From assembly GCF_032062105.1 (NCBI RefSeq), contig NW_026920964.1:1-64000 (forward strand): a DNA stretch of 64,000 bases, in the 5' to 3' direction. The notes beneath the pieces were generated by a model. It saw only the letters and a list, made by a program, of their open reading frames with translations, was not told the DNA's origin and made no database searches. The position numbers were made by a program, and so were the translations under genes. This DNA is from Saccostrea cucullata. Its lineage: Eukaryota. This document shows, one piece after another, positions 12,040 through 45,264 of this stretch (positions are counted from its first letter, which is position 1; each line of letters begins with the position of its first letter).

Positions 12040-13695
12040 ATGGATAAGGATATCACAACACAACTTAAAGTTCTTCTGTGCTCTCATTGTCCGACTGATG
12101 TGAAATTCTACTGCAGGCCATGTAAACAAAATCTGTGTTTAGCGTGTAAGCAGAAACACGTTGTGTATCTCGATACCAAAGACCATGATGTGGTTATATA
12201 CCGTTTGAAGCATGGAAAATTTATAACACCAGAGTCATGTGATAGACACCCAAACTGCAAATATAAAAACTGGTGCAAATCTTGTAAATGTCCCATCTGT
12301 GATGCAAATTATAAGCATAAGAAACATGAAATTCTTGATATCAAATTAGCCTGCACGGTTAAAAGACAGCAACACAAGGAAAGAATTATTCAAATTAGAG
12401 GTGATAGTCTCCCGTACAACAGTGCGATCCTAGCAGGTCTCGAATTTGACGTCAAAAAAGATGTAAAAAACTTAAAAGCAAAACTTTCCAGCATCCAACA
12501 AGAGCTTGCGGTTAAAGCTGAAAACTTGAGAAAACTTATCGAAATACATAGTAAAGCAGTAAATGATTTATATGAAACAAATTTTTATACGAGTTTTATA
12601 ATGAAGCATCAAAAAATGACAGAGTATGTACATAGATACGAGCAACTGGCAAACAAACCCGTGAGGTTTCTATTGTTCATAAAGAAAACCCCTGTCCCCA
12701 AGACAAAAGAACTTCCTGATAACATAAAGTGTAACTTTAATAAAGAAATAAGAATAAGAGACACTTTAGAGCTATTAGTTGAAATCAAAATCACAGAGAC
12801 AGGAAAAAGACAAGTTAGAAATGAGAATATGTTGAGACTGTTAAAAGGGGCTATCCTAAATACTAAGCATGTCTATGTGACTAACTTAAATCACGGTGTA
12901 CACATTTCCTTTGTAACATCAGAGCAACTTTGGGTCAGTGATGGACACAGTCTTACTTTGACCAATTCTAAAGGTAACATTCTACATCATTTATTTGATG
13001 TAAGTGAATACTATGGTGTACATACAGTAAACAGTGAAGGAGAGTTGATTTATGTAGACAAAGACTGGAACATTAACAAAATAAGTGCAGACAATGCTAC
13101 AAAGTCGACATTGATAAAAAGAACAGAATTATGGGAACCATGGTGTATCTGTCACTCAGGCTCTACTGGAGATTTGCTGGTCATGATGAGATATGATACA
13201 AGAAACCCCACCATACCATTATCAGATGTGAAAGTCATTCGGTATAGTAGTACAGTTCAACAAATCCAAACCATCCAATACCACAGAACAGGCGAACCAT
13301 TATATAGTGAGCCTATCTATATCACAGAGAACGGGAATGGAGATATTGTCGTGTCTGATACATGGAATGGTGTGGTCGTCACAGACCATGAAGGGAAATA
13401 TCGTTTCACTTACACAGGACCACCAGAAGGACTGTCGTTTGGAATATTTATGCCAAGTGGAATTTGTGTAGATGCATTCTTAAATATCCTGATATGTGGT
13501 CGACTAGACCAAACAATACAATTGATAAACAGGGATGGTCTTCTACTGTCAATTCTACCAACAAAACAAGATGGAATGGTTGAGCCATTGGGACTTGGAT
13601 ATGACGAAAAAAATCACGTTGTTTGGATGGGATCAGGAATGAACAACAAACTATGTGTATACAGATATATAGAACGACAAGATTATCTTGCTTAA
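12040..13695 (+). CDS. RING-less TRIM-like protein: B-box x2, coiled coil, NHL-like beta-propeller (intact, single coding exon)
   Basis: CSHC..FYCRPCKQNLCLACKQKH and CDRH..WCKSCKCPICD B-boxes; NHL-type motifs PIYITENGNGDIVVSD, PSGICVD; splice acceptor TTGTAG ending at 11982 upstream of ATG 12040. Confidence 0.9.
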   Translation: MDKDITTQLKVLLCSHCPTDVKFYCRPCKQNLCLACKQKHVVYLDTKDHDVVIYRLKHGKFITPESCDRHPNCKYKNWCKSCKCPICDANYKHKKHEILDIKLACTVKRQQHKERIIQIRGDSLPYNSAILAGLEFDVKKDVKNLKAKLSSIQQELAVKAENLRKLIEIHSKAVNDLYETNFYTSFIMKHQKMTEYVHRYEQLANKPVRFLLFIKKTPVPKTKELPDNIKCNFNKEIRIRDTLELLVEIKITETGKRQVRNENMLRLLKGAILNTKHVYVTNLNHGVHISFVTSEQLWVSDGHSLTLTNSKGNILHHLFDVSEYYGVHTVNSEGELIYVDKDWNINKISADNATKSTLIKRTELWEPWCICHSGSTGDLLVMMRYDTRNPTIPLSDVKVIRYSSTVQQIQTIQYHRTGEPLYSEPIYITENGNGDIVVSDTWNGVVVTDHEGKYRFTYTGPPEGLSFGIFMPSGICVDAFLNILICGRLDQTIQLINRDGLLLSILPTKQDGMVEPLGLGYDEKNHVVWMGSGMNNKLCVYRYIERQDYLA

Positions 13696-14209
13696 ACTTT
13701 AATGTGCTTGTGTTTGGCTGACTTGTTACATATCAATTGGCAAAACTTTTTGCGATGAATTTGACTACAAAATATTCCGTATACTTGATAAATAAATAGG
13801 TCTCTAGGCAGGTTATAATCAGTCAACAGGGGATGCTTACACATCCCAGGCACCTGATTCCACCTCTGTAATTTCCATAGGTCCCTGTTATGTGCTGTTC
13901 ACAGAATTGTTTTGTTTGTGTTATTTGCGCGATCGATCACTGTTCGTTAACTTCACCTTTTTTCCCCACATGTACAGACAAACAGACAAGGAGATTTCGG
14001 ACATTCTTATTAATATAAATAATAATGACTTGATCCACGTACAATGAGAGATGATAATTATTTTTAATCGTGAGATACCAGGGTATAGAGAATTTTTCAA
14101 GTTCAGTTTATTTGACGAATACAAATCAGGAGCAGAGCAAATACTGATTTTTAAACATTATAAACATTATAAAATAAATGTCTATGAAAAAATTTATTTT
14201 TTATTGTAA

Positions 14210-14309
14210 TGTGTCCCCTGCGGTGACAATTTGAATCTAAATGAGAAAACATGTTTAAGGATGTCACAACCCACATTAAAGTACTTCAATGCTGTCAGTG
14301 TCAGAAAGG
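14210..14309 (+). pseudogene. 5' stub of another TRIM-like paralog
   Basis: Matches 34175-34288 (KDVTTHIKVLQCCQCQ); truncated by a Naiad RT fragment. Confidence 0.75.
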
Positions 14310-14492
14310 TAACAACATTGTCTTTGTTTGTAAAGCTCATTATATAAATTGCATTCTACAAGAACTTGGACTTAATTCTAAAAGTGGTAATACTACTTAT
14401 ATTCATACTTCCCTTTCTAAGGAAGAAATTCTTCAAATCAACTGTCAGTTTTGAATACTTTTAATATTCCACGAGCCAAAATGAATTTGAAC
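14309..14492 (+). mobile_element. Internal Penelope-like (Naiad-type) RT fragment
   Basis: NNIVFVCKAHYINCILQELG..GNTTY resembles the N-terminal RT region of these elements. Confidence 0.65.
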
Positions 14493-14495
14493 TAC

Positions 14496-14896
14496 AGACA
14501 CGTGCCATAAGTATTCAGTCAACTTGGCGGTTTGTTTACGCTTGAAAACGAAAGTACATACTTTGAGTCTCTTGTTTTTGTATCTACACGTCATCGATGA
14601 CGAAGTGTTATAAATTTATATTTTTAGTCACATGATGTATCACATGATCATTTGTTGTCGTCTGTAGTTAGCGAAAGTTGTCAGAATTACGAATTTGAAA
14701 ATATGGGTCGAAAAGTGCATTAGCTTGGGACGGAGGCGAAAAATATCATTATAGACTTGATACAAATTTGATATAGTGGTCTTTCCCGTCACAAGGTCAG
14801 TGAGATGTTGAAAATTCCAAAGTCAACAGTTATCGATGTCGCAAGAAAGTTTTTTTGCCACAGGGTCAGTGGAAAACAAACCAAGATGTGGGCGGC
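14496..14896 (+). mobile_element. Decayed Tc1-like transposon, 5' part
   Basis: TA|CAG start; disrupted HTH transposase N-terminus from 14703 (MGRK..SEMLKIPKSTVIDV..GSVENKPRCGRP) with stops. Confidence 0.7.
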
Positions 14897-16207
14897 CGGT
14901 GTAAAGACGAATAATGACCCCCATCGAATATTGACCCGGAGTCATTTTTCAACGACAAAAAATGACCCCCTACCCCTAGAAAAAATCATTTTTTTAGAAA
15001 AAGAGTCCTAGGGGTCATTATTTTATATGTTAGACCTATAAAAAAAATTGACCCCTATCGAAAAATGACACCTTTTAAAGTGATACAAATTTTATAACAG
15101 TGAAAGGGAAAATTATGCTGTATATTATAATTGTTCTTCCTTCGAGTAATTCATGAATTTGTTCGAATACATTTTATATTTGTTCTTTTTAGTATCTAGG
15201 GGTAATGAAGTTCCTCATTTCTCTCTGCCGAATTATTGACAAATCAGTTTTAAGCAATTAACAATCAATCAATTAATCACCATTTCTCTGATAAAGGAGC
15301 AAACCTAGAAAATCAAAGATGTACATGTAAATGGATCAAACGAACGCTGGAGATATTTATGAATATAATTTTTTTTCTTTACTGACTCCAATTATTGCGT
15401 TGTTTCAGAAAAATACATATTCTAACGCAAAAACTATACATGTACATGTAGACATATCTTTTTATACAGTATAGTATTCATTGCATTTCTTAATTCTTGT
15501 TTTACTCCACCCTTTTACTCAGTTCTGAGTCTATTTTTCAAAGAATTTAACATGAAAATCAGAACAAACATTTTCATTTTTGTAAAGTCTTCTTTATACT
15601 GTATCAAAATATGAAAAGTTAATTGAAGATCATTTCTTTTTATATCCCTGTAATCGAAGATTTTGGGGAATATAGTTTTATCGTAAGTATGTCTGTCTAT
15701 CTGGAGGTCTGTTTGTCCGCAAAAACTTTAACCTTGACCATAACTTTTCATTTATTGGAGCTATGACTTTCTTATTTATTTAAATATGTGTATTCATTGA
15801 GACAAGACCTTACTTTGGGTACCACCAAATTTAACCATTTGACCTTACCTTGGAGTTTGTCCCACTTTAAACAAAAATGCCATTTTTTACATTGGCCATA
15901 ACTTTTAAACAGTAGATACTAGTACTCTCGTACTTCACATATGTATTTTTTGGCATGACTTTTCATTAGATACTAAAACTTTGACCCTTTGACCTTGGAG
16001 ATTTTCGTACTTATGACAAAAAACTTTAATTTTGGCCATAACTTTTGAACGGTAAGGGCTAGGGACACAAAAGGGTCATTTTTCTACGTCGAATAAGGAC
16101 CGGGGGTCATTTTTCGCCGTAGAATATTGACCTGGGGTCATTTTTCGCTGTCAGAAAATGACCCCCGGTCATTATTCGATGGGGGTCATTATTCGTCTTT
16201 ACAACGG
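14896..16207. mobile_element. Non-autonomous TIR element with subterminal ATGACCCC repeats (EnSpm/CACTA-like)
   Basis: TIRs CCGGTGTAAAGACGAATAATGACCCCCATCGAATA / TATTCGATGGGGGTCATTATTCGTCTTTACAACGG. Confidence 0.85.
15636..16062 (+). repeat. Degenerate Helentron-associated (HINE-like) element with satellite-like monomers
   Basis: T-run, short hairpin, GTCT-like microsatellite, then three GrCCATAACTTTT-containing monomers (~15737, 15895, 16034). Confidence 0.55.
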
Positions 16208-17386
16208 CAAACGTTATAACCGAAAATCTTCCTATTTAATGTTATGTGTATATTCCGATAAATATGTATTGGTATAGAGTAAACATATCTTTCTCTGCTT
16301 ACATCTTGTGTAAACTAGCTAGCTCTCATAGAAAAAGAAAAGATAGAAATAAACGAAGAGGAGTTTCTAATATTTGAATGCAATAGTCGATGTATACTTC
16401 TAAAAAACACAACATTTGGAATTCAATCGTCAATTTCGATAGCACAGAATAAAGAGGCAGGAGTAAGAAATGTAGATGACTACAAGAACCTTACATCTCA
16501 TCAGTTCTCACGTCTCCAAAGCATTTTCTTTGAGGGTATATTTTATTTATTTATTCCTCTTCCTTAATTATATCTGTCATGGAATTCATTGTACATGCAC
16601 TACATTAAATCCAATGCTAAGATAAAATTAATTTTTCTGCAAATGTTGAACACGTTTACAATAATTTTTTTAAAAAAATAGTCTTCACTACATTCGTTAG
16701 AAACACGCTTATAATTGTGATAAATATTATTTATGAATAAATTAGAGAGAAATATGCTATTTTCTCTTTTGTCCGAAATTCAACAATTTAAAATTCAAAC
16801 ATAGTGAAAAAACCCAGACAACGAAACAATTTGTGGCTGAATCAATACATTAAAAAGACCGGAAAGCGACCCCCCGTCCTTCCCACGAAGAAGTGATTTT
16901 TCATATTTGGAATACGAGTTTTGATGTTCTTGGTTACTTAGACATTGGATTTTTCTTGAGCTTTGGGATGGAAAAATTAACCCCAGGAAAAAACTCCTAG
17001 AAAGGGTACCTGCTAAAATCTTCAAACAGATATGCCGAGGGAAAAACAGATGTACTCATATTGCTTTAGTGACTAATAATTCATAACAATCAATAAAATA
17101 AGTCTTGAATTGCTTTAGTAACTAATAGTCAATAAAATAAGTCTTGATCATTCATTTATCAAAATTCAATTTACTTTGAAAAAAAAAGTCTCAGTTGAAT
17201 TTTGTACAAGACTGTAAAGTAATTATACACCATATTAAAACGTTTAATGTCTATTATAAACTACACATAAGAATTCATTACAGTCGTATGTTAGAGGGAG
17301 GTACATGTATATGAGCTCATCTAAGATACAAGGTAAACATTCTATAAGGAATAGGATCAAGACAGGAAAAGGTATCAATTTTCCCT

Positions 17387-19179
17387 TCATACACTTTCAT
17401 CTGAGCTTGAAGATATACGACAAGAGTTTTCAAACTCCAAGTCTAACTGTTTCTTTTCAGAAAGGCAAGAAAGGGCTTTGTTGAGTCGTAAGCAAACTGT
17501 GGAATTCAGGAGGTCTTTAAGACTTTCGTCTCGGACTTCATCTATCCCTCCAGTCACCAGACCCAAAGCATGAACAGACCTCTGTTCGGGGGATCTGTCG
17601 TGTTGGAAAACAACGGACCCACTATCCCCTTGTAAAGAAAAGGGGTACTCATCGGAGTTAAAACTGGAAACTAAGAACATTTCACTTCTTTTCCCAAACA
17701 ATTCATGATAGAACTCCGAGCTGGTGATCCGACCATCAGAGAGATTAGTTGTTGCCCCCTTCTTATGGACGACAGAATTTGCTGATATGGGTCCTTCGTG
17801 AATATTTACATTGCATGGTTTTTCCATTCTATTTAGAAAGGTCGTATCACAGGTTCCACGTTTGTTTTTATCTATTTGGAAAACGGCAAAGTCGTGGAAA
17901 GGTTTTTGATCTGAATAGATGCATTCACCAACTTGGGCCAGTTGCTTATTTTCTCCAGACGTAACGTACACAAATTCGTTCTCCCTAGGCAATGCATGAT
18001 GACACGTCAATCCATACAACTCGCCTTGACCTCGATTGTCTCTCAAAAGAGCGCCAGCTGTTGCATATTTTGAAATTTCATCATTTTTATCTAGGTAAAT
18101 TTTTTCACCTTGCTTCACATGATTGTAAATGTTTAGTTCACCGGACACGATGTGCAGTGACATAGTGTTTAAGAATTCAGGATCAAGTTTATAGAGTTCG
18201 GAATTTAGACTTTCAATATCTTCTCTGTTTCTGACAAATACTCTGAACTCTGATGTTTCCCAGATTCCAAAGCCTTGAACGTCTGATCTCCTGGAATGAC
18301 CAAAATAGATAGTAAATCATACTAAAGAAGAAGGTACAGTTTGGGCTTATTGAGCTAAAAATAATGTTCAGAAAAATTATGAAGATGACTGTAATATAAG
18401 TTAAGAAGACCACCACTTCCATATATTAGAACATTACAGGGTCAGGTTTGTATTAAAACCGTGTTCCGTTCTTTAGGCATGACGTAAAAATCATTGAGTT
18501 ATGTACCATTATTAGTTCAATAGTAATTCACTATTAATCCCAAAGGTTTATTTTTACTACGCAGTAGCAAAAATAGGACATAATAGAATTACATACTCAA
18601 ACAGGAATTTTTTAATCCTTTCCGGGATCTGCATTTCATTTCTCGTCGATGACATTTGTGATAAAACTGATTTGCATTCATTCAACAATTTTGGTATTTC
18701 TTCATTCATTCCTTCGTAAACGTTCAATTCTTCAAGAAATCCTTCGATGCATTTCTTCAAATATGCTTCTAGGAAAGAGGTTATAGCTTCTCGAACACAT
18801 TTCTTTTTTCTTGAGAGGATCGAGAATTTTGATTGAAATGTGTTTCCAAACGATGACCATCCAGCTTTATTGAGAACTATGTAAGCTTTTGTCCATACAA
18901 CTGGTCGTATGGAATTGAGAAGCTAATCAAAAAAGAAGAAAATTGCAGTTGCTTTCTTTAAATTTTCGTGAATTATTTAGTTTATATAACATTTTCAAAA
19001 GCGTTCAAAGTAATTACATCATGAATACCTCTTCTATTCTTTCTATTGGTTCATTCTCACTTTGAAAATAGATAAGCGCTGAAACAGGCCATCGTTGTTC
19101 ACCCCTCAAAGAGGAAGCTTCTTGCTCTTCTAAAGGGAAACAAATAATTTTAAAATTAATTACATGCCAATAGACCCAA

Positions 19180-19216
<37 letters not shown>

Positions 19217-19920
19217 GATACCTGTAGCCTTTGAGGAAGAAATTAGTTTTTCAGTTTCTTTAGTAATATCCCCGGCTAGGTAAAGCTGGACTTTTTGGAC
19301 ACTCATAATTAATGGTGCAATGACTTGAGACGATGATCTGAAATTTCTCATCTTTGTTGCAAGCTTAGAGACCAACTGATGGTGGTAAATAAGACGTGGA
19401 AAGTTGCTGATTGGATACCACTTCTCAATGTATGGTGATCGATATGAATCTGAAATTTTACGATCTAAAATAATGCAAAACAGCGAGTATACTGGGGCAA
19501 TAAGGAAGTTTAAAAACTTTTTAAATAACTTTTGTTTCTTACCAGATTTAGATCTCTGATGATATATGTTACTTTCCACAGATTTCATGCGTTTCTCATT
19601 GGCATCCGACTGTCTTTTTCCTATCTGAGCCTGAATACGAAAACTATACTATTCAGTATCCATGTAGAATTTTTACCTAGTCTTTTTAAATTGATATACA
19701 ATAGAGTAAAATGTAATATGACTGTTGCGGAAATTAAAATATTTTTTTTCTATTTTAAGAATGAGAAATGGCTGAATTTTAATACCTAAATTTGGATTTT
19801 TTGAATAATAAGGAAACAAAAAACCCATTTGAACTATTAGAGACTTACTAGTGGTTTGGTTCTTAGAGATACGTTTGCACCAGTACCAAGTGGAAAGGGA
19901 TGTGTACAAGAGCAGGTCAT
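17387..19920 (-). CDS. Six-exon NAL1/Ssy5-like trypsin-fold serine protease (~577 aa); exons 19920-19849, 19630-19543, 19464-19222, 19129-19029, 18922-18597, 18290-17387
   Basis: All introns are GT-AG and phases join into one stop-free 1734-nt frame; triad motifs LTCHHAL, HDFAVF, GDSGS; KKGATT motif; no signal peptide. Further upstream exons cannot be excluded. Confidence 0.85.
19183..19213. repeat. (GA)n microsatellite in intron 3 of the protease gene
   Basis: Direct observation. Confidence 0.95.
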
Positions 19921-20416
19921 TCTATCCGAAAAACAAAATAAAATGAGAAAGGTTTTTCATTAGTATCCAAGAATTAATTAGACCCCAAAACTGTGTTTTT
20001 CTACACGAAAAATTAAAAGAAAATTTTTAAATGTATTTATGTACGTACATGTATATATCTATAAACATTCGGATATTTATCCTTTTTTAGGTTAAATAGG
20101 GCAAAATATATACAACATGAGTGTGAAGGAAGAGTGAAAAATGAAAAAAAAAATCCTGAATAACAACTCATGATTGAAATAAATTCAAGCTTCACTAACA
20201 AAACATTCAATTTTCTGTTTATAATATTGCAGTCGTTTTTGTAACGCCTTGTCTTAGATTGTGACGTCAACGCCATAGCTGAGTGATTGGGACGTCATGT
20301 CTTAGCGCTATCATGATTTAAATCATTATAAAAATGGATTTTACCAGCCTTTTTGGAGAAGCTTTGGAAGTTTTAGCCTTTGCCTGAATTAGAAAACTTT
20401 TTATCTTATATTAGAC

Positions 20417-20758
20417 GACCGTCTCGGTAGCTTAGTCTATGAAACGTTTGCTTCGTGATCGGAAGGTAGTCTGTTCGAATCTCGGGCATGACTGACCTAC
20501 AGTGTAAGTCGGAAATATGTTCTTCGTCAAAAGTTCAGCACTTGGGATGAGACCTAAACACCAGGGCCCCATGTTGACCGTGTCACATAAGTCGTTGTCA
20601 CGATAAAGACCCCCCACTGCTAAATTGCCTGCTTAACTGCCCTTAGTGCCAATCATAGGTCTAAACTTGAAACCTTTCACCGGTACATTGTATGAGATGA
20701 TGTTTCTATATATGAGAGAAATATCAAATGGGAAGTAAAACAAAATACAATCAATAAA
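20417..20758 (+). mobile_element. Diverged tRNA-derived SINE
   Basis: A-box-like TAGCTTAGT, B-box GTTCGAATC, core CACGATAAAGACCCC, AATC-type tail. Confidence 0.7.
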
Positions 20759-22821
20759 TTATTATCAACAAGGAAAACATTTTCAACACTTTTCCTGATG
20801 AGAAGTGAAATAGATTAACATTCTGATAGACATGTATTTACATTTGCTGTGATTTTCTAGGAAGCCAACAGTGAAATAGATTTGAACACCATTTTCATGT
20901 ATACTCACGCGTAGAAATAAACACGGAAGAAACGTGCACTAACTTGAAGTCACAATGAGGCTACAGAGACGTTAGAAAAATTGTAACGAAATAGGGCAGC
21001 GAGTAATTCAAATATTTAGTACCATGCTTTAAGACAGATATATCTTTTTATTTTAGTTAGTTTGAACTTATCAAAAAATACGTCAGAAATGACTTTAACC
21101 TCGACTTCGACTCTGTCACTATTTTCTTTTTGGCGAAAAGCAAACCATATTGACCAAAAGAGCCATAATTGTTTAATCACCCCAATGCCACAAATATAGC
21201 ATTTTTTTTCTTCAAAATTCTTACCTGAAACAGGTATGGTTCTAGTCATTCAAAATGACTTTTTGTTCCATGTACAAAGAGTAGACAAAAATTCAATTGT
21301 CAATGATGAACTTATTCTCTACATGGATGATGAGGAGTCCTGGAGGAGTGAAAAAATATCACAAGGAAGTTACAAGTGAAGTGGAGTAAAACTAATCATA
21401 TATATATTGTTTACGGAAGGTGACACTTAATTTAGCTGCTTCGTGGCAATGCCTTATTTCCTCTTATATCATGTTTGATCACTTATTGTTAAGTATTTGA
21501 TTGTGTTCCACTTTATATTTTAAACATAAATTGTCAATGGTCAAGTGTGTGTAGCTTTCTATAATAATTGTGCGATTGCTTGGGACAGTAATTTTTTTTT
21601 AAAGTCATATTCATGTGATGCAACTTTTTTGTTCGAAAAATTGATAATGAAAATATTAGATGTTGTTATCAGAAAACCTGTATACAATATGATTTTTCAT
21701 GTCTACTCTCTTATCCACTGGATTCAGTTATTGGTTTCGTATCCCACAAAACTGTCAATGTGTAGTTGTTGCAGGTAAATATACAACCATATGTTTATGC
21801 ACTTACACATGTAGAATATCTACACAGAATCCTTGCTCATATCAATTGTTGCACAGTTTTATCGAATGTTCCGTGAAATGTTATAACAACGAACGAGTAA
21901 AATTGTGTTTTCCATGAAAATTGGACCTCCCGAATAAAAATGATCCTAAAGGAATGGATATATATATAAATACATATATAACATACTAACACAGCTTCCT
22001 CCATGAAATAGTTCATTGCACCATCAAAATATTTGGTTAAATACCTCTAGGAATATTAATCCAACTCTTACTAGCAGGTCATTTCTAAAGATAGAATTTT
22101 TTTCTCTAATAGGTCCTTTAGAAAATTACTTATTTATAAATTAACTGATAATTTTTACTCCAAAATACTTGTATGTTAAAATTGTAATCGCTACTTTATG
22201 TTTAGTACTTTTAACATACACTTAACCAAGGTGAGTTTGATCTACCCGACCTAAACTTTCTTCCAAACCTTAAGGACGCTCTACTTATAAATTTATAATA
22301 TTTTTTATTCTGAATGTGACTTTCATCAGACGACTTGCGGGGTTTTTTTTCCCACACTATGAGTTGGATACAAATCATAGGCAAATTCAAATCACAGGAT
22401 AGCCTTTTTATATTACGTTTTATGAATCATTATCAATGATTTTCACATGCAGTTTTATATAGAATACTTTTTATTTTACTCAATAACTCTCATTCAATGT
22501 CAATTGTGTTGTCACAACTTTGGTATATAAATTAAAATCCAATGCTTGAAAACCACAGCATAAGGTGTAAAATTGGATAAATTACTTTTTTCAACTGGAA
22601 CTATATATATTGTTCTAAGTTAGATTTATACCTATACCAATAGAGAGATGGTGGACGTAACATTAGATATCACACTTTACTATTTGTATTATATACGCAT
22701 TTGTTTTTTAAAATCAACCCACTCATATAATCTTTAGACTATGCACTGCTACGGTATGTTGAAAACGTACTTAATACATATTTGCACTTGAAAAAAGGCT
22801 AAATAAATCAGTTTGGAAAAC

Positions 22822-23406
22822 AAAGGACAAGATGGGGTAACGGCCGAATCTGGCCCCTTATTTGATGTAAAAATCAGAACATTGGTAAAATGTGAAAGTT
22901 TGTAATTAAGAAGTTAAAATGATGCTTTCTTAAAAAAGGACTAATAAAGATTCAAAGCATACATGAAAGCCAGTAGAGGGTGGAGATGTAGGACTTTTTC
23001 CAGAATTTCCTCAATTCTGGTGGAATTTCATCCTATTTGCGATACATTTCTCTTTGGAAAACATAGAGCACAAGCTTGCAATTGCCTATCTGAGATTTTT
23101 CCACATAAACTGCCTCTGATATCAGTGTATAAAATATATATATTTTGTAGATAGGCAAGCGTGTGCTCTATGTTTTCCGAAACAAAATGTGTTGTTAAAT
23201 TGATGAAAATTTGCATAAAAATGAGCAATTTCGAAAGTTGACCTATTTCGTGACCTCACTGTGGCCCCTGTATATTTTAAATCCTAGAACCAATACTCAT
23301 TTTGTATCAGGGGTGACAACAGGTTTTTATCGACAAACTGTTGGATCATTCTGAAAGACACCCCAAATCGGGGGCCAAATTCTGGACTTACCCTATCTTG
23401 TCCTTT
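22822..23406. mobile_element. MITE with AAAGGACAAGAT TIRs
   Basis: AAAGGACAAGATGGGGTAA..TGGCCCC / GGGGCCA..TTACCCTATCTTGTCCTTT. Confidence 0.75.
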
Positions 23407-24358
23407 ATACAGGATTTTAATAAGTGTCCATGGGCTAATTGAACAATGCACACAGAATTGTTGGAAACTATTCCATTCTGACCTAAATTATAGTTTTGGA
23501 GTATTTGACTGTGATAGTTCGCGAACCTTTCATCACCCGTATGACGGTGAACCACTATGGTATATGTTTATTAATGAAAATGATCTTTTAATTTTTTTTT
23601 TGTCATTTCGCTAAATCTATAAAGCTACAGTGTATGTCACCACTTGGTTGTAAATGTTTGCCATGTGCTTTAATTAATATATCCAAAATTTGTTATAATT
23701 AAAATTTTATCATTGGGATCTGAGTTATCAAATATTATTATAATTATCATTACAAAATGTGGTCAATGAAGGATCATAATTTCATATATACACTGCACAT
23801 TAGAAAAACTTGCTAAACATATAATCGCTTATTTTTCTTTTTTGTGAATACAACATTTGCGTAATTGGTATTAGTAAATATTTATATTATGCATATTTAT
23901 ATAAAACGCCATCTTTTCCAATACAGTGGAATTGGCAAATGATTTGGTATCATGAAAAACCCAAAAATTACCTTCTTGCCTGAAAACCAATTTTCCGACA
24001 TGCAAATCATACCTTTTTTGTCAAATTATATGCAGTTGCTAATTATCGACAATGGTATTTGAGATTATACCAAGAGCAGTATCCCAGTAAACTACTCAGA
24101 TTATATGCAACGATTGACTATTATATCGCTTGCTAGTCTTCAAGAGCTTGGAAGATGGTGTTCATATCATCAAGTCTACCCAGCTTCTGGTTTCCCCAAT
24201 ATTGGGGAATGACATTGAAATGTTTAAATGCTTGGCTATCTTTAGTAAATATCTTAATGTTTACTAGTCTTTTCACACCAATTTTTCAATTTGTCAACTT
24301 AAACTCATCACAACTATTTTTACAACTTTTTTTCACTAAGAATAATAAATTAAAGCTA

Positions 24359-25564
24359 TGTTACAACGCGAAGTGTTATAACAACGCGAAATGTTGTAAA
24401 CTCGGATTATTACAATTTGCGTTATTACATTTTGCGTCGAGATCAACGCAAAATGTAATAGCACAAAATGTAATAAGATGATTTAAGATTACTACATTTT
24501 GCGTTGTTACATTCTGCGTAATTTTATTTTTGCACTGAAGGCAATGCAAAATGTAATAAAACAACATGTAAAAAACAAAATATAATTAATTATTTGGATT
24601 GTGTATAACAAAAAATAACAAAAAAATTATTCAAATATTTACATGTAATTAACATGGGGAAACACACCGTAAAATATTTAGAACTAAAGCAATGAGACCA
24701 ACACTAGGGCTTTTACGGACATAAATACATCTAAATGCATCGTTTTTTTTTTACTCTGATTTTTGTTATAATGAATACACTGTACTTAATTTTACAGTAA
24801 CACATGATTTATTTGATTACCCAAGATTGACCATAGGTTCATTAAAATCTCTTGATATGCCATTGTATGTATAGATTGGTTAACAAATTAGACGTGTATG
24901 TGAGGAGCAGGGATAGGATGGGGTTTAACTTTGTATGTTTATTATTGTATTACATGCAGAATCAATTCATTTTATTATTGGATGGAAAGAGAGAGAGAAT
25001 TTGTTTTTGCATGTCTGCGATGCTGGTGATTTGCATGGAACAGTATGGTATCATTTGTCATTAAACCTCTGCCCGCTATACATTCACACCTGCCAGTACA
25101 TATATATAGGGGTTTTTTTTATAGATTCATTGGAAAAACATTATTAAACTAATTTTAAATAATGTAACTAATTAAATCAATATTATAAAATTTAATTGTA
25201 AGAAATTGCATATATCTATTTTTCTCCTTTTGTTTGATTTTCTTTTTTTATCGGCTACTACGTGATGAAAACAAGTGTGTTATAACATTTTTTGCTCATG
25301 CCTTTTGCTAAATCTCGACGCAAAATGTAACTACGCAAAATGTACTAATCCAAAAACAGTGTTATTACATTTTGCGTTATTACATTCTACGTTGATCTCG
25401 ACACAAAATATAATTACACGAAATGTAATAATCCTCAAAAGTGTGTTGTTTCATTTTGCGTTATTACATTCTGTGTTGATTTAGACGCAAAAGGTAATAA
25501 CGCAAAATGTAATAATCCAGGTTTATTATATTTCGCGTTGTTATTACATTTCGCGTTGTAACAG
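24359..25564. mobile_element. MITE with TGTTACAACGCGAA TIRs and repeated subterminal motifs
   Basis: Both inverted arms present, flanked by TA. Confidence 0.75.
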
Positions 25565-26436: not shown

Positions 26437-29185
26437 GAATCGCTTTATTATTGCGTTTACGAACGGGCTTCCCTAAAAGGTAGATGACTATGGTTATATC
26501 AATTGTCCATGTTTGTTGTTTATGAAGATGGAATAATTGTTTTCATCATGGTGAAACACATATGTTACTTTCAGTTTGTACATATTTTTACAAAACAATT
26601 GAATAGGTATGTTTATTTTCTCACGGTCAAATATATTTCACTCTGAAAATTTTACATGAGAACAAATAATACATCATTTATTGAAATGTTTTGGCATTTC
26701 GAAATCCCAATTTTAAAAAATTCCTCAAATAAAACAACAAAAAGAAGAAAGAGGAAACGTAGAAGAATATTCTGTTGTACACTTTAAATTGATGGGGGGT
26801 TTTTATTGAAAAGTTAGCTGTAAGCATAACTGATAAGATCGCAATAAACATACGTAATATGAAATATTTTGATTTTGAAATGTTCTCCATTGTGTTCAGT
26901 AAAGAGTAAAGAAATAAATATGGATGAAGCAAGTGAGATACTTTTTCCTGGGAACAACTTTTTTTAATGAATATAATTAAAACCAATGACTAATAAGTGT
27001 CTTTTTAAAACGAAGAGATGCAATATTCTGCTAGAAGTGCAAAATAATAGACGTATTTAATATTTAAAAAATTATTTTTTTAAAAAAAAAGAAAAAAAGA
27101 AAAATATTCATCGATGGATCAAATAGAAGAACCAATTAATTTGTTCAACATAAATACGTCAAATATTTCAATGTTGTCCGCATTACAAAAAAATTAGTTG
27201 CATATTTAGAATTTGCAAGAATTTAAAAAAAATAATAATAATACGTTAATTAAAACTATAATTGGTAAATGCAGGTATGTAAAAAGCATAGAAAAATCAT
27301 GTTCTTGTTTGATAAATGTGGGGGTTGGAAAATATGCTTATTAATAAGTATATATAAAAGGGTCTTGTGAAAAGAATTTAAATCAAAAATATATCGTTAA
27401 TTCAATTAAATATATGATATTAAACATGTTAAATTTGATAAAATATTCTCTTTATTTATTCAATTTATTTTTTAGTTAAAATTCATTCACAGCATAAAGC
27501 CACTTGAACTGATTCACAAATATCGTTTTTAAAATTGTTATACTCAAAGATTATAGATCAGAATACTAACTTACTTCATAAACACAATAATTTTTGTGTT
27601 TTGTAACAAGCACCTACTTTTACACCTTCCAACCAAATTAAACTTTACCACATGCTATTATAGTCCGAAAAATCTTACGGTTTCTTGGCTATTTTAAAAT
27701 ATGATTTTGATATCTTATACATGCCAGGAAAACGTACGGTAACAAATCAAAATCGTAAAAAAGAATTGGACAACGACAGATATTTCGGACTTATGCTATT
27801 ATTGCCCATGCAGAAGTCTTTAGTCATTTTAAGTTGACATAAAAACGTTACTTATCCATTTTTAGAATTTTTTTTTTGGCGGATAAAAATTATCTTTAAA
27901 TAACCAGAGATACGTGCGTATGACCTACGGTGTCAAATTGACCCATGCTTTCATTGTTTACGATTCCTTCGCACTGATAGCCTTTCTACACCGGATAAAA
28001 TGTTGTGATTGTTGGTCGCTGTTATTTATGAAGGATATATTTTCCTTTTCTGACAAATAAGATGAAACTCTGTAGCGAATTTCATTTCATAAGTAGAGAA
28101 AAATAGTTAAAACTGTATTATTAGCCGTAACATATTTTTTTAGGTTGAAGAAATGTAAGTTGATAAGTGTAATACGAACACTGATTCGCACCCAAGATAA
28201 TTCGCATGGAGACGTTCCGCTCTCCACAATGAAATCAAGGGGGTTGTGAGGAGAATAGCGTATGAGAACCCCTTGGCTAGCGAAGATGTTTACAATTTTA
28301 CAATTAAAGTAAAACACGACTGAGAATTATTGAATCAAGCTAGGATAAACTTAGCTGTTTTACTTATTAACGAACAGCTATACAATATTTATTTCCATGA
28401 TTTGTTTTAAAATATACTATACATCTACTGCTTAATTAATGTTAATCCTTGTTCTTTTTACGTCATTTAATATACAAAATGTAAACTTTGGTGAATTGTT
28501 AGTTTTTAGTTAATGAGACATGGACACAGTTTTAACTGATTTTGTTTTTAAAAACACTTTTAATATTTACAATTCCTAAAGACAATTGAAATGGTCAGCT
28601 GAACATAATTTCTTGATTTACAAAGGAGAAACGGAACTTAAACTCTTCATAATATAAACAAGGGTTCTTGCCTCGATTTTGTTTACATAAAGAAAATATC
28701 AATTTTTACGACAAAATGAGATTCAGAAAATCAATATTAAGTGTTTATTTGTATTTAAAGTTAACTTCTTTACTGACAAAACTGCTTTGAACGAACATAT
28801 TTTAGTATATCTAACCTATGTTAACAATAACATGACAAGGGCCTTGTTTACATACCGGTATCAAAGATTGGAGGTCTAAATCTTTCTTAAATTGTATCTC
28901 GTCAACTGAAATTTAAATTTTTCATATTTATAAAAAATATTTAAGTTAAGTATATGTAAGCATGAAGAAATGAACAATAAGTTTAAATAATTTTCAGCTG
29001 AAACTGTGTTCGTACCCTTTTAAAAAAGTATTTCTTCTGGAAAAACAAATATTATCAAAGTTCATATTTCCTTAGAAACATTTAACTGTAGAAAAAATAA
29101 TTGTATCAAAATATTTTTTTAATTGTAGACTGTCTCCTGAAGTAATACTTTGAACCTAGAAAAGAAAACAAATAAAAGTAACACC

Positions 29186-30832
29186 ATGAGGATATCACAA
29201 CACAACTTAAAGTGCTTCTGTGCTCTCATTGTCCGACTGATGTGGAATTCTACTGCATGCCATGTAAACAAAATCTGTGTTTAGCGTGTAAGCAGAAACA
29301 CGTTGTGTATCTCGATACCAAAAACCATGATGTTGTTATTTACCGTTTAAAGCATGGAGAATTTATAACACCAGAGTCATGTGATAGACACCCTGACTGC
29401 AAATATAAAACTGGTGCAAATCTTGTGAATGTCCCATCTGTGATGCAAATTATAAGCATCAAGAACATGGAATTCTTAATATCAAAAAATTAGCCTGCAC
29501 GGTTAAAAGACAGCAACACAAGGAAAGAATTATTCAAATTAGAGGTGATAGTCTCCCATACAATCGTGCGATCCTAGCAGGTCTCGAATCTGACGTCAAA
29601 AAAGATGTAAAAACCTTAAAAGCAAAACTTTCCAGCATCCAACAAGAGCTTGCGGTTAAAGCTGAAAACTTGAAAAAACTTATCGAAATACATAGTAAAG
29701 CAGTAAATGATTTATATGAAACATATATTTATACGAGTTTTATAATGAAGCATCAAAAAATGACAGAGTATATGCATAGATACGAGCAACTGGCGAACAA
29801 GCCTGTGAGGTTTCTATTGTTCATAAAGAAAACCCCTGTCCGACAAGACAATAGAACTTCCTGATAACATAAAGTGTAACTTTGATAAAGAAATAAGAAT
29901 AAGAGACACTCTAGAGCTATTAGTTGAAATCAAAATCACAGAGGCAGGAAAAAGACAAGTTAGAAATGAGCATATGTTGAGACTGTTAAAAGGGGCTATC
30001 CTAAATACTAAGCATGTTGATGTGACTAACTTATAACACGGTGGACACATCTCCATTGTGACGTCAGATAGACTTTGAGTCAGTGATGACCGAAGTCTTA
30101 TATTGACCAATTCTAAAGGTAAAAATCTGCATCATTTATTTGATGTAAGTGAATACTATGGTGTACATACAGTAAACAGTGCAGGAGAGTTGATTTATGG
30201 AGACAAAGACTGGAACATTGGCAAACGAAGTGCAGACAATACTACAAAGTCGACATTGATAAAGAGAGTAGTTTTGTGGGAACCATGGTGTATCTGTCAC
30301 TCAGCCTCTTCTGGGGATTTGTTGGTCATGATGAGATATGATACAAGAAACCCCTCCATACCATTATCAGATGTGAAAGTCATTCGGTACAATAATACAC
30401 TACAACCAATCCAAACAATCCAATACCACAAAACAGGCGAACCATTATATAGTGAGCCTATCTATATCACGGAATGGGGATATCGTTGTGTCTGATTCAA
30501 TTAATGGTGTTGTGGTCACAGACTGTAAAGGGAAATATCGTTTCACTTACGCAGGACCGCCGAAAGGAGTGACCTTTGGATTATTCATGCCAAGTGGAAT
30601 TTGTGTAGATGCATTCTTAAATATCCTTGTATGTGGTCGACTAGACCAAACAATTCAAATGATTAACAAGGACGGTCTCCTGCTGTCAATTCAACCAACA
30701 AAACAAGATAGAATGGTTGAGCCATTGGGACTGAGATATGATGAGAAAAATCATCTTGTTTGGATGGGATCAGGCAACACCAACAGACTGTGTGTGTACA
30801 GACATATAGAACGAGAACATTATCTTGCATAA
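29186..30832 (+). pseudogene. TRIM-like B-box/NHL pseudogene (recent duplicate of 12040-13695)
   Basis: High identity, but with a deletion after the ATG, several frameshifts (~29410, ~29485, ~29845, ~30470) and in-frame stops (~30034, ~30076). Confidence 0.9.
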
Positions 30833-32397: not shown

Positions 32398-34230
32398 GAT
32401 AGTTCTTCCATTTCAAATATCGAACAATTGAAGTTAGTTAACCTTTTTTCTGATATTTAGTTAATTGACTTGAAAGTTGCAGCTTTTATTGCTTTAAAGT
32501 AAAGATGCCAAAACTAGAAAATAAAGACATTATTTAGTTTTAGGACACTTAATTTGTCAACCACAAAACGTGCTCAGGATCAGTTGCACATAAATGTGGG
32601 GAAATAAAAAGTTAATATTAAATCCGGATTTCTTTCTTCTGTCGAATTTTCTTGAGTATCTGCCTTCCCACATTATATTACGCATGTATATTATCAGGAC
32701 CACTTAAGAATTCGGAATAAGTGTTAATTCAATGGGACAGTCCTTATGTTGTAGTTTAACTGTTAAATTGAATTATATTTTATTTGGTTTCTACTGTTTA
32801 TCTGGATTTTAGACCGTTTTCTTTCGGATGGCTGATTAAGGTAAAGTATGCACCTTTTTTGTTAGTGATTTACTAGTAAAAATAAGAGATAAGCTTTGCA
32901 TGTTGTACTCCACGATCAATAAAACCAGAGACATTAACTGACATAGAAAGATAAGAAAAATAGCGAAAATGTTTTAAAACTATTTGATCTTGATCGTACA
33001 TACATTATTATGCTCACTTATTTTTCCCCATTTTTCAAACACTCCTTTTATTATGACATAGTTTAAAATAAACCTATTTAGTCAATTTCAAAAAAACATA
33101 AATATTTACTGACATTGAAAGGTGAGAAAAATGAAACAAACATTTGCAAATTATTTGATTATAAACATACTTGCATTCTGACTTTTTTTCCGGATAACTT
33201 GTTATTCGCTTTGAGGGGGGTTAAAATTTTTGTTTTAGTGGACAATTTTACTAGACGTACATTTTAAACTTTTAGGCATACCTTTACTCAGATGACTGAA
33301 AATTCCACTGATAAGAACGAAATACCACCTATTGCACATTGTACACCTATGATTCTTGTGTTAAATTTCAATTTCAAATAACTAGATCAATGACCTCGTT
33401 TTCAAGCCAGGGGCCCTTGAGTATTTCTCGGGAAATGCCTCAATTTTTCACACTAAGAGCAACAAAAAATAAATAATGAAATATTATGGCAAGGGAACAG
33501 AGTTTCTCCATATAAAGAAATGAGTAGAGTTTGGGCCGTAAAGGTGATAATTATTACAGTCCGAATCTCCTCTGTCATATTTATATTTTTTTCCTATTTT
33601 TAATCAAGTATCGCAAAAATCTGAGTGATAAGAACTCTAAATTATTTATATAGCCTCGGATTACTTTTGTTAGCCTCATTCTCATGGTATTAATATTATA
33701 TGGAGTCAATGATCAAATTATTGAGATATGTTGACTGGAGTGGTTTTTGTACATGTTTTTGAATTTCTTTATGTCATAGCATTCATTTATTTGAAATAAT
33801 TTATAAGCTTAAACACATATAAAATTTTCAAATTGATGTCTTAAAATACATATAACATTTACTTTGTGATTAATATTGCAAAAAGAAAATTTCAAAAATG
33901 AAAAATTAAAAAAATTAGTTCGAATTTCCTCTTCATAGCCATACATTGAGTTTTGTTCCTATATATTTTCTTCAAAGACTTACATATTCAATTTTTAAAT
34001 TGATATTTAGATAAAACTTTTTTATCCATTTAAAACAATTTTTGATTTAATGTATTATACTTTATAAAATTTCCTCTCTGATTTCTGAAACCTGAGTAAA
34101 CGTCATCCTTAAATCATTTTACTTATCATGAAAATTAATGTCTAAGAATACATTATATTTTGTTTTATTGTAGACTGTCCCTTGAAACGACATTTTGAAT
34201 TTAAATGAGAAAATATATTTAAGTAGCACA

Positions 34231-35869
34231 ATGAATAAGGATATCACAACACAAATTAAAGTGCTTCAATGCTGTCAGTGTCAGAGAGATGTGGAATTCT
34301 ACTGCAGACAATGTGAAAAAAAATTTCTGTATGCCTTGTAAGCAGGAACACGTTGTGTACTTCGATACCAAAGACCATGATGTCGATGTCGTTATTTACC
34401 GTTTAAAGCATAGAGACTTTATAACACCAGAGTTATGTGATATACACACAGACTGCAAATATAAAAACTGGTGCAAATCCCGTGAATGTCTTATCTGTGA
34501 TCCAATTGATGAACATCAGACATGAGATTCTGGATATCAAATTGTCCTGCATGGTTCGAAGACAAGAACTCAGGGACAGAATTATTCAAATAAGAGCCGA
34601 AAGTCTTCCATACAATCGTGCTATCTTTACAGGTCTCAAATCTGCAGTCAAAAAAGATGTAAAAACATTGAAAGTACAATTTTCGAGCATCAAACAAAAG
34701 CTTGCGCTTAAAGCTGAAAACTTGAAAAAACTGATCGATATACATAATAAGGCACTAAATGATAAAACAAATACTTATATTAGTTTCGTATTAAACCATC
34801 ATAGAATGAAGGAATATGTGCACATATACGAGCAACTAGCAAACAAGTCTGTAAAGTTTTTGTTGTTCATAAAGAAAACCCCTGTCCCTAAACCAAAAGA
34901 CTTCCTGATAACATAACATGCAGCTTTTTTGGAGAAATCAATGAAAGAGACATAAAGAACTATGTTGTTGAAATCAAAATCACAGAGACAGGAAAAAGAA
35001 AAGTTAGAACTGAAAAAATGTTAAAGCTGATGCAAAAAGGAATGTTAAAGAAGTATGTTACTGTGACTGACTTAATTCATAGTATTCACATTTCCTTTGT
35101 GACACCAGATAAAATGTGGGTCAGTGGTGGACTTAATTTAATTTCGACAAATTCTAAAGGTGAAAGTTTTCATTATTTGTAACATGTAAATGAATATTAT
35201 GGTGTACATGCGGTAAACAATGCAGGGGAACTAATTTATGTAGATAAAGACTGGAACATTGACAAACTAAGTGCAGACAATACTACAAAGTCGACATTAA
35301 TAAAGAGAACAGAACTGTGGGATCCATGGTGTATCTGTCACTCAGCCTCAACTGGAGATTTGCTGGTCATGATGAGATATGATACAAAAAACTCTACCAT
35401 TAACTCAGTGGTGAAAGTCATTCGGTTTAACAGCAATGTACAACCAGTAGAAACCATCCAGTAAGACAACTCAGGCCAGCAATTATATAGTGAACCTATC
35501 TATATCACAGAGAACCATAATGTTGTTTCCGATGCATGACGTGGCGTGGTGGTCACAGACCTTAATGGAAATTATCGTTTCGCTTACAGAGGGCAATCAA
35601 AAGTATTCCCATGGATGTTCTTTGTTCCACATGGAACCTGCGTAGATACATTCTTAAATATCCTGATCTGTAGTCGAACGGATCACACAATGCACATGAT
35701 TAACAAGGACGGTCTCCTGCTGTCAATTCTATCAACAAAACAAGATGGGATATTTACACCATTGGGTTTGGGATATGCTGAGAAAAATCATCTTGTTTGG
35801 ATGGGATCAGGCCAGACCAACAGACTATGTGTTAACAGATATATAGAACGACAAGTTTTTCTTGCATAA
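34231..35869 (+). pseudogene. TRIM-like B-box/NHL pseudogene (older paralog)
   Basis: Fragmented frames homologous to 12040-13695; same upstream acceptor TTGTAG|ACTGTC. Confidence 0.9.
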
Positions 35870-43515: not shown

Positions 43516-45264
43516 ATGGACTTACAGGCAGAATCAGTGTTTGTTATCTTCAAGTTTCGTCCAAGCTATTCAAAGCCTGAAACAAAAATGAGCATTATGA
43601 AAATACGTAATACAGCATTGACAAAGCCACCAATTTGTGATCCATTTCACGGAAAGATAGAATTCTACTGCAACACATGTACAAGAGACCTTTGTGTTCC
43701 TTGTAAGGAGAAACATGTAATAGATTTGGACACTATGTATCATGATGTAGTAATACGTCAATTAAAGAATGGAATTATGGTATCAGAGGCGTGTAAAAGA
43801 CACAAAGACAGAAAATATGACCGTTGGTGTCTGTCTTGTGAAAATCCACTTTGTGTCAAGTGTAACGAACACCAAGAACATGAAACACACGATATAGATC
43901 CATGTTGCGTGGTGTGCAGAGAAGAGAGCAATATCAGTATTATTCACCTCCGAGGTGAGATACTTCCTTATAGTATGGCTATCTTTGCGGATATAAAATC
44001 TGACCAGAAAACAGAAAAACATCGAGCGGAATCATTCGAAATCATGGAAAAAATGAAAAGAAAAGCTCAGAGACTAAAGAATTTTATCGATAAAAAAATG
44101 CGAAAGGAATGTACCAAATTAAATTCTCAAATAATCTCATTAATTTATCAGCAGCGAAAGCGACATTTAAAAAAAATTATGAAATATGAACATAGATTTG
44201 AACAGTTATCAAACAGACCAGTAGGATTCCTTTCATGGGTTAAGAGGTTTCAAGTTCCTAAACTGAATGGAATTCATGAGGATTTGAGTTGTTTAATAGG
44301 AAATATCCAACAGAAAGAGATAGGGAAAAGGCAAGTAAGAAATGACTTTCTCCTGGAAATTATGCTCGAAATTGATATGTTTCACGAATCTATAATTGTG
44401 ACAGACATGTTAGAGATCGATGAAGATGACAATTGGATTCGTCATATTTCCCTTGGATTACCAAACACAATCTGGATAAGTGATAAAAATAGCTTAATCT
44501 TGATAGATACAACTGGTGACACTCTGGATCAGCTGGCAGTTACAGATATTGGAACGGGTGTACATACAGTGACCAACGAAAAAGAACTTATTTACATTAA
44601 TGAAAATGAGAACATCTGCAAATTATCAAAAGACAACACAACCGAATCAACAATTATATTAAAATCAGATCCATGGAGGCCTCTCTGTGTCTACAGCTCC
44701 ACTTTAAATGGAGATCTATTGGTTGGATCTGGTAAATATGAGAAAGACAATCAAACAGAATCCAAAATAAACCAGCATTTTCCTACGGAGGCCAGAGTAA
44801 ACCGATACGATAGCAAAATGTTAAAGATCCAAACTATCCAATACAAAAGGCGTAAAAAGAAAATGTATAAGTGTCCTGCATATATAACAGAAAACAGTAA
44901 CGGAGATGTTATTGTGTCCGATAAAAGATCTTCGCATAGTGATGATAATGGTGTTGTCGTCGTAACGGACCGTCAGGGAATCTTTCGGTTCTCCTACAAC
45001 GGACCTCCATTCGAGAGCCAATCATTTTTTCCTTGTGGGATTTGCACAGACGGACTATCAAACATTGTGGTGTGTGATCACAACTCAGGCACCGTTCAAT
45101 TGATTAACAAAGATGGACATTTTCTTATGTATCTCTTGACTTCCCCAGACATCATGCCACCATGGAGTCTTGCCTATGATGAAATTAACCACCGTTTATT
45201 GGTTGAATCAAGTATATGTGAAATATTCTTATACAGATACATTAACAGGAAGGATTACTATTAA
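43516..45264 (+). CDS. RING-less TRIM-like protein: B-box x2, coiled coil, NHL-like propeller (intact, second subfamily; start may be the ATG at 43588)
   Basis: FYCNTCTRDLCVPCKEKH, CKRH..WCLSCENPLCVKC; PAYITENSNGDVIVSD, PCGICTD; uninterrupted 582-aa ORF. Confidence 0.9.
   Translation: MDLQAESVFVIFKFRPSYSKPETKMSIMKIRNTALTKPPICDPFHGKIEFYCNTCTRDLCVPCKEKHVIDLDTMYHDVVIRQLKNGIMVSEACKRHKDRKYDRWCLSCENPLCVKCNEHQEHETHDIDPCCVVCREESNISIIHLRGEILPYSMAIFADIKSDQKTEKHRAESFEIMEKMKRKAQRLKNFIDKKMRKECTKLNSQIISLIYQQRKRHLKKIMKYEHRFEQLSNRPVGFLSWVKRFQVPKLNGIHEDLSCLIGNIQQKEIGKRQVRNDFLLEIMLEIDMFHESIIVTDMLEIDEDDNWIRHISLGLPNTIWISDKNSLILIDTTGDTLDQLAVTDIGTGVHTVTNEKELIYINENENICKLSKDNTTESTIILKSDPWRPLCVYSSTLNGDLLVGSGKYEKDNQTESKINQHFPTEARVNRYDSKMLKIQTIQYKRRKKKMYKCPAYITENSNGDVIVSDKRSSHSDDNGVVVVTDRQGIFRFSYNGPPFESQSFFPCGICTDGLSNIVVCDHNSGTVQLINKDGHFLMYLLTSPDIMPPWSLAYDEINHRLLVESSICEIFLYRYINRKDYY

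Follow-up and report, generated by a model that had tools for sequence, protein, structure and literature searches.

The window analysed here, a stretch of 64,000 nucleotides from the oyster Saccostrea cucullata (contig NW_026920964.1, positions 1 to 64,000), carries between 17387 and 19920 a spliced gene for a protease that resembles rice NAL1. The original prediction for this locus, made from the sequence alone, gave no strand; the gene is established here to lie on the minus strand. Given that the product has an intact catalytic triad without secretion signals and probably a NAL1-type pro-like domain, and that related proteases are gated, a plausible scenario is that it is a signal-less, switched cytosolic signalling protease of the NAL1 type, held off by a dead dynamin-like GTPase head until it is released. 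This is a working model, to which we give a probability of about one half. Residue numbers refer throughout to a 572-residue form of the protein.

The protease gene and its product

The gene is one member of a small paralog family in Saccostrea. Three word-seeded protein searches returned four S. cucullata proteins, three S. echinata proteins and one JGI fragment (38%), and a fifth S. cucullata gene model was added by cluster look-up. In S. cucullata the members are found on four contigs, in S. echinata on two sequences, and two gene pairs probably each share a contig. Outside Saccostrea these insensitive searches recovered the JGI fragment alone, which does not show absence from other bivalves; the nearest Atlas cluster has 56 members, is eukaryotic with Mollusca commonest, and the family is therefore wider than word-seeded searches reach. 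Pattern scans of metagenome, prokaryote and viral contigs found no relative, tblastn of plasmids was empty, PADLOC matched none of four proteins and NCBIfam gave nothing useful.

The catalytic half of the protein is laid out as follows:

18143..18634, minus strand: NAL1-type pro/ATP-binding-like (ABD) domain, residues 260-321, split by intron 5
17441..18100, minus strand: trypsin-fold NAL1-type protease, residues 336-555
17998-17996, minus strand: His370 of the catalytic triad
17893-17891, minus strand: Asp405 of the catalytic triad
17623-17621, minus strand: Ser495 of the catalytic triad

The spliced product contains LTCHHAL, HDFAVF, KKGATT, QGDSGS and DVQGFGIW, so that the triad and the two further motifs named in the original prediction are all in the translation, and His370, Asp405 and Ser495 are kept in all nine family proteins. 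On this sequence evidence the protein is very probably an active protease. The hallmarks of secreted S1A trypsins are an IVGG activation site and a C-x-GDSGG motif with Cys191. GDSGG and an activation-site IVGG are absent from all nine family proteins (an IVGG-like word occurs in P0008 alone, C-terminal to the catalytic serine), Cys191 was not found in the oyster protease, and Pfam Trypsin (PF00089) matched none of eight members at E up to 1. By hydropathy there is no signal-like or membrane stretch in the window protein (best N-terminal 11-residue window 0.82, best 19-residue window 1.07) and, by hydropathy alone, no hydrophobic N-terminus in any of the five full-length family proteins (best 11-residue windows 0.12-0.91). 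The earlier claim that signal peptide and IVGG site are missing is borne out to that extent.

Several lines of sequence evidence support the view that the oyster protease is nearer to the NAL1, Ssy5 and bacterial type than to the secreted trypsins, as originally proposed: (i) Pfam Nal1_C gave a weak match in six of eight family members (best E 0.0012), and Peptidase_S64 (PF08192) matched the catalytic part only of four of the eight, P0001 not among them (best E 1.7e-6); (ii) a profile of the oyster proteins aligned to a profile of bacterial NAL1-like proteins at 98.1% and E 7e-14 over 161 columns (hhalign); (iii) the bacterial profile, searched against the PDB, found rice NAL1 first (E 4e-24), far above streptogrisin (2e-12); and (iv) Atlas neighbours of the protease at 0.95-0.97 belong to the Nal1_C, S64 or Trypsin families. 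Two points weigh against this typing. The window protein falls short of the curated Nal1_C cut-off of 26.1 bits (11.2-12.8; P0001 11.2), and the profile match is inflated, as the bacterial set was chosen by its K-x-GATT motif (123 prokaryote loci, 115 with open frames, of which 19, picked by score and length, were aligned). The alignment does take in the His and Asp strands, which lie outside the selection motif, and the Atlas features back the typing independently of the bacterial profile. Foldseek placed NAL1 at rank 1, yet at E 0.059, and neither of the two structure models that we predicted had a match at or below E 0.001. The protein thus resembles NAL1 in build while staying below the Pfam membership cut-off. 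Among the bacterial loci, one contig of Nocardia altamirensis carries two neighbouring K-x-GATT protease genes separated by 3 kb.

In a quick tree of 72 rows (nine family proteins and 63 prokaryote frames) the oyster proteins and P0008 grouped together (support 99); their branch is long, and no bacterial group is placed beside it with support. NAL1, Ssy5, FAM111 and S1A proteases lie outside this tree and gene transfer is therefore not claimed.

Directly ahead of the protease, residues 260-321 are the best-modelled part of the protein (predicted local distance difference test score, pLDDT, 65-85), with a helix-strand-strand-helix-strand order. Rice NAL1 is described as having a small ATP-binding domain immediately N-terminal to its protease (PMC12012508), and the oyster segment is probably its counterpart. 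The stretch running from DVQGFGIW to FRVFV scored 19.0 against the bacterial counterpart, above all of 100 shuffles, at a probability of just 4.9%; Pfam NAL1_N (PF25608) matched no family member. Rows for ZnT C-terminal domains among the Foldseek matches probably reflect the same small predicted fold.

The gene has five introns, all GT-AG. With the exon 3 acceptor at 19464 the open frame is 577 residues long; with the acceptor at 19449 the 572-residue product is letter-identical to P0001 (XP_062597434.1, RefSeq LOC134258861, Saccostrea cucullata), which RefSeq names 'uncharacterized'. The acceptor at 19449 is the more likely, because it yields the RefSeq-identical product and because contigs from relatives join intron 2 at 19445-19450. 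The six exons, GT-AG borders and open frame of the original prediction stand, then, and its length of about 577 residues probably gives way to 572. The exons are:

19849..19920, minus strand: coding exon 1, residues 1-24; ATG one base past an AG acceptor; intron 1 joined in 4/4 runs
19543..19630, minus strand: coding exon 2, residues 25-53; basic, low-confidence N-terminal tail (pLDDT <50 for residues 1-58)
19222..19449, minus strand: coding exon 3, RefSeq acceptor (19464 adds 5 residues); includes the first helix of the bundle and strand 1 of the alpha/beta insert
19029..19129, minus strand: coding exon 4, from the splice model and relatives' contigs
18597..18922, minus strand: coding exon 5; remaining alpha/beta insert, two bundle helices, first pro/ABD-like helix
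17387..18290, minus strand: coding exon 6, 904 nt; whole protease with stop, preceded by most of the pro/ABD-like domain; intron 5 joined in 4/4 runs
21225..21270, minus strand: candidate upstream untranslated exon, terminating in CAG/GTAAG (donor 21225), 5' end not defined; resemblance to relatives' loose ends by eye

Transcript evidence comes from contigs of four of 15 listed runs, one recorded as RNA and three presumed to be RNA; the contigs carry no information on expression level, strand or induction. Introns 1, 2, 4 and 5 are joined in all four runs and intron 3, among the rows listed, in two of the four, with a shifted donor. All five introns of the predicted model are thereby joined, in contigs that are mostly at most 95% alike to the window gene and therefore derive from related oysters and paralogs rather than from the window copy. 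Exon 6 is covered by two sequence classes (for example 36 versus 97 differences in about 695 bases in one run), which suggests that two paralogs are transcribed. Contigs have loose ends at 19923 in three of the four runs, and at least one additional 5' exon therefore exists. In the candidate upstream exon an ATG (21225-21250) opens a short frame that, once spliced, would stop across the main start codon; this frame has no apparent conservation in the relatives' loose ends.

The N-terminal half and control of the protease

Whether the protease is switched, and by what, turns on the region ahead of it:

18647..19432, minus strand: N-terminal domain, residues 60-255 of 572; alpha/beta insert in a three-helix bundle; candidate dynamin-like pseudo-GTPase

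Both structure models place a helix at residues 71-90, an alpha/beta insert at 106-200 and helices at 203-253 that pack onto the first helix; residues 1-58 form a low-confidence tail in the first model. When the first, full-length model was compared with 48,161 chains (best 50 rows examined), the top five chains were all of the dynamin superfamily and matched residues of about 67-256: MFN2 (Z 7.5, root-mean-square deviation 5.0, 176 residues aligned), EHD4 (Z 6.9), BDLP (6.3), Campylobacter DLP (5.8) and LeoA (5.8). By title, 33 of the 50 rows were of the GTPase fold, 13 were not and four were unclear. In a second fold comparison G-domain/bundle constructs of Drp1, dynamin 1 and Vps1 ranked top (Z 7.3-6.3), and the three-helix bundle around the insert was reproduced in the second model. 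The best alignment to a dynamin profile sits in the expected strand-4/G4 register, with a score not above shuffles. GTPases carry the motifs G1 (GxxxxGK[ST], the P-loop), G3 (DxxG) and G4 ([NT]KxD). None of five N-terminal halves carries any of these and the domain, if it is a G-domain, is therefore dead and would not hydrolyse GTP. From the models we regard descent of this half from a TRAFAC/dynamin-type GTPase as an evenly balanced proposition; if the reading holds, the combination of a pseudo-GTPase head with a NAL1-type protease appears to be new.

Much weighs against a G-domain. The models are weak (mean pLDDT 53.5 and 59.4, predicted template modelling score 0.37 and 0.49) and were built from eight and five close sequences, respectively. 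In the first model no Z is as high as 8, and Z of 7-8 is typical for unmatched models. In the second, pLDDT is 27-59 across the alpha/beta insert. Its best 50 rows are headed by helical bundles and include three dynamin-family chains and no small GTPase, and MFN2 aligns at Z 7.3 with a deviation of 8.1 over 149 residues. The Atlas model has no GTPase among the 10 matches listed, all at TM <=0.38 by query. Pfam scans and PDB sequence searches of the head gave no GTPase family. Tested by profile against two sets of bacterial GTPase domains, of 18 and 13 members, the head scored 12.6 (at least 10 of 100 shuffles higher) and 18.65 (1 of 80 shuffles higher, not significant). Finally, the S. cucullata models P0005, P0007 and P0011 start at or inside the pro/ABD-like domain and have no head; they may be true head-less forms or truncated models.

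Scores of 36 GTPases set against those of 168 other frames favored the GTPases (p 2e-7). We give this result no weight, because a control scored highest and because some controls were shadow frames that differ in composition. AIG1, Toc34 and IRG families are not listed among the fold-search matches, which falls short of excluding them. Dynamin stalk and membrane-binding domains were not encountered: the bundle ends at residue 255 and the protease unit follows. Head identity among five paralogs is 42-84%, slightly below that of the protease (62-84%). A cyanobacterial GTPase (L167, G004:C228) has the word AGDIT after a hydrophobic strand, as does the oyster head, at a score that is not significant and in a register that differs from the fold-based one. 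A match of the head to the Cap12 TIR domain (E 0.18) ranks below annexin and is noise.

Our working model is that the signal-less protease, with its triad intact, would work in the cytosol and that the N-terminal half of the same protein would keep it inactive. A partner or a stress signal would release the enzyme, and the freed protease would then cut a few specific host proteins in limited cleavage. A head that does not hydrolyse GTP could serve as a dimerisation or docking surface, with the hinge-like bundle relaying a change in the head to the protease. There is precedent for such gating. Ssy5 is reported to be gated via its pro-domain, through degradation of that pro-domain (PMC3145550, PMC6761765), and bacterial defence proteases are described as switched by sensors within protease-effector modules (PMC12642450, PMC7159879). 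That the N-terminal half regulates the protease strikes us as somewhat more probable than the GTPase descent of that half; a role in immune or stress signalling is a more tentative suggestion. The sensor-plus-protease idea of the original prediction may persist in altered form, the candidate switch, judging from the models, being the protein's own N-terminal half.

The strongest alternative, less probable than the gated protease with a GTPase-derived head and still to be taken seriously, is that the N-terminal half of a NAL1-type intracellular protease is an unrelated alpha/beta domain or an inhibitory pro-region like that of Ssy5, with activation by its cleavage or degradation and a role in nutrient or developmental signalling. 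The absence of GTP motifs in all five halves, the non-significant sequence tests and the failure of the second model and the Atlas model to recover a clear G-domain all fit a half that is not a GTPase, and the Peptidase_S64 matches in four of eight members, together with the reported control of Ssy5 through its pro-domain, fit a pro-region. It does not readily account for a top five drawn from one superfamily and spanning the helix-insert-helices layout in the first model, nor for the register of the best dynamin-profile alignment.

Rather unlikely, although it would be the most far-reaching outcome, is an undescribed oyster immune switch in which an invader protein or a host GTPase would make the pseudo-GTPase head dimerise and the protease would cut a death or signalling effector. 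The protein would then represent, in an animal, the NTPase-plus-protease type of defence known from bacteria, and the NAL1-type cassette might be reused behind different invertebrate sensors.

Neighbouring genes and less probable readings

The original prediction set the gene inside a TRIM-NHL array and made it the effector of a module with these neighbours. The surrounding features are:

11995..13695, plus strand: TRIM-like copy 1, an open RING-less B-box/coiled-coil/propeller gene
29141..30832, plus strand: TRIM-like copy 2, frameshifted as assembled; 4 frameshifting indels relative to copy 1
34186..35869, plus strand: TRIM-like copy 3, frameshifted as assembled; 3 frameshifting indels relative to copy 1
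43516..45264, plus strand: distant TRIM-like gene, open; 38% identical to copy 1
14310..24556, no strand: unique block of about 10 kb with the protease gene; a duplicated TRIM-like unit on either side

The position is as claimed, but Pfam found no RING in the TRIM-like frames and NHL only weakly (E 0.0025). Further TRIM-like fragments lie at 46.7-50.3 kb, and seven start variants of the two open frames had no exact protein look-up match. The frameshifts in copies 2 and 3 may reflect decay or assembly error.

A module in which the flanking TRIM-like proteins sense an invader and the protease is their effector can point to the position of the protease between TRIM-like copies and to the expansion of immune gene families in bivalves (PMC6289776, whose passages on this expansion leave B-box and NHL genes unmentioned). 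It is unsupported, because the TRIM-like units are duplicated without the protease (self-comparison places them at about 5.8-14.15, 24.6-31.3 and 34.2-36.8 kb) and the protease, single-copy in the window, lies on the opposite strand in its unique block. That block is abutted at its start by a 137-bp stub (14171-14308) that matches the 5' start of TRIM-like copy 3 and looks like a rearrangement scar. Both downstream copies are, moreover, frameshifted, and the protease family extends to other S. cucullata contigs (four in all) and to two sequences of S. echinata. We consider the module, like any functional tie to these neighbours, improbable, and the position of the protease among them likely to be incidental. 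B-box/NHL-type genes are very numerous in oysters.

Slightly less probable again is a constitutive housekeeping protease, similar to NAL1, that would assemble itself into a cage and degrade unstructured cytosolic or nuclear proteins, the head picking substrates or location. NAL1 is reported to form a trimer/hexamer cage through ABD-protease contacts (PMC12012508), and both domains seem present in the oyster protein; repeated duplication in one genus and a single detectable relative outside it better fit fast turnover, though the searches were insensitive. A trimer prediction for residues 259-556 reached 0.27 (mark 0.32), gave no answer and is counted neither way.

It is very improbable that the protein is an ordinary secreted trypsin or that the gene is a pseudogene or derives from bacterial contamination. 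The protease unit does lie mostly in one exon and Atlas neighbours with family labels are mostly bacterial, but these readings are largely refuted by the five introns joined in relatives' contigs, the open frame, the RefSeq gene, the animal neighbours and the missing S1A hallmarks (no IVGG activation site, GDSGG or Cys191; Pfam Trypsin in 0/8).

The window also holds several retroelements. At 53474-59963 lies a long terminal repeat retrotransposon of the BEL/Pao type, whose 391-bp terminal repeats are 99.5% identical and which has a pair of long open frames; it is apparently a recent nested insertion into a Gypsy-like element, separating the gag frame (51307-53088) of that element from its pol frame (60433-63762). 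The gag-like frame begins with a helix-hairpin-helix (Pfam HHH_3, E 8e-6) followed by gag and zinc-knuckle parts. A minus-strand non-LTR retroelement, broken into several frames, occupies 38736-42971 (reverse transcriptase, Pfam E 1e-34). Pieces that are 95% alike at 10885-11901, 31810-32456 and 5499-5847 belong to a small reverse-transcriptase element, which we take to be Penelope-like; its end recurs, in older copies, directly after TRIM-like genes. A decayed TRIM-like gene contains an array (48201-48958) in which a 54-bp unit occurs about 14 times and long open frames run on both strands.

Relation to known systems

NAL1-type proteases are a subject of study in rice, as is their relative Ssy5 in yeast. 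In the literature covered we found no animal NAL1-type protease; subscription journals and supplements lie outside that scope, and such architectures might be catalogued in the supplements of PMC8195603 and PMC7159879. The oyster family is an expressed, duplicating candidate for an animal intracellular signalling protease outside the caspases and FAM111. Should the head prove to be a dead dynamin-like GTPase, it would hint at how such a protease is switched and would bear on the immunity of farmed oysters; without a GTPase-derived head, the finding adds modestly to a known protease type.

In bacterial NTPase/protease conflict systems an NTPase, active or inactive, is described as the switch for a trypsin-like protease, which in turn releases an effector (PMC7159879, PMC12642450). 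The oyster gene differs in being an intron-bearing animal gene with no adjacent effector gene and no PADLOC match for any of four proteins. With the dynamin superfamily (MFN2 6jfk, EHD4 5mtv, BDLP 2j68, LeoA 4aur, Drp1 3w6n) the head shares a predicted layout of helix, alpha/beta insert and two further helices that complete a three-helix bundle, a match that comes from a low-confidence model; unlike dynamins it has no G1, G3 or G4, stalk or membrane part, is much shorter and is fused to a protease. FAM111A and FAM111B are, like the oyster protein, animal intracellular trypsin-like proteases with an intact triad, and FAM111A is described as antiviral. FAM111 proteins are said to combine Trypsin_2 with two ubiquitin-like domains, which some marine invertebrates lack (PMC9798293), whereas Trypsin_2 is weak in two of eight oyster members (E 0.09) and the head is not predicted, from weak models, to be ubiquitin-like.

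Yeast Ssy5 (S64) shares with the oyster protein an intracellular chymotrypsin-fold protease behind a long N-terminal region, but P0001 has no S64 match and the oyster protein offers no evidence of self-cleavage or a phosphodegron. The closest type is formed by rice NAL1 (PDB 7y77, 8hau, 8pmm; Nal1_C PF25819, NAL1_N PF25608) and the bacterial NAL1-like proteases. The oyster protease is about 20% identical to the NAL1-like bacterial proteins and below Pfam cut-offs, and its head of 200 residues, a predicted alpha/beta domain plus bundle, takes the place of the 88-residue strand-swapping N-terminus of NAL1. It shares with NAL1 the signal-less trypsin fold with His-Asp-Ser, the K-x-G-x-T motif ahead of a G-x-I strand, the F-x-x-x-GDSGS motif and, probably, a small alpha/beta domain directly before the protease.

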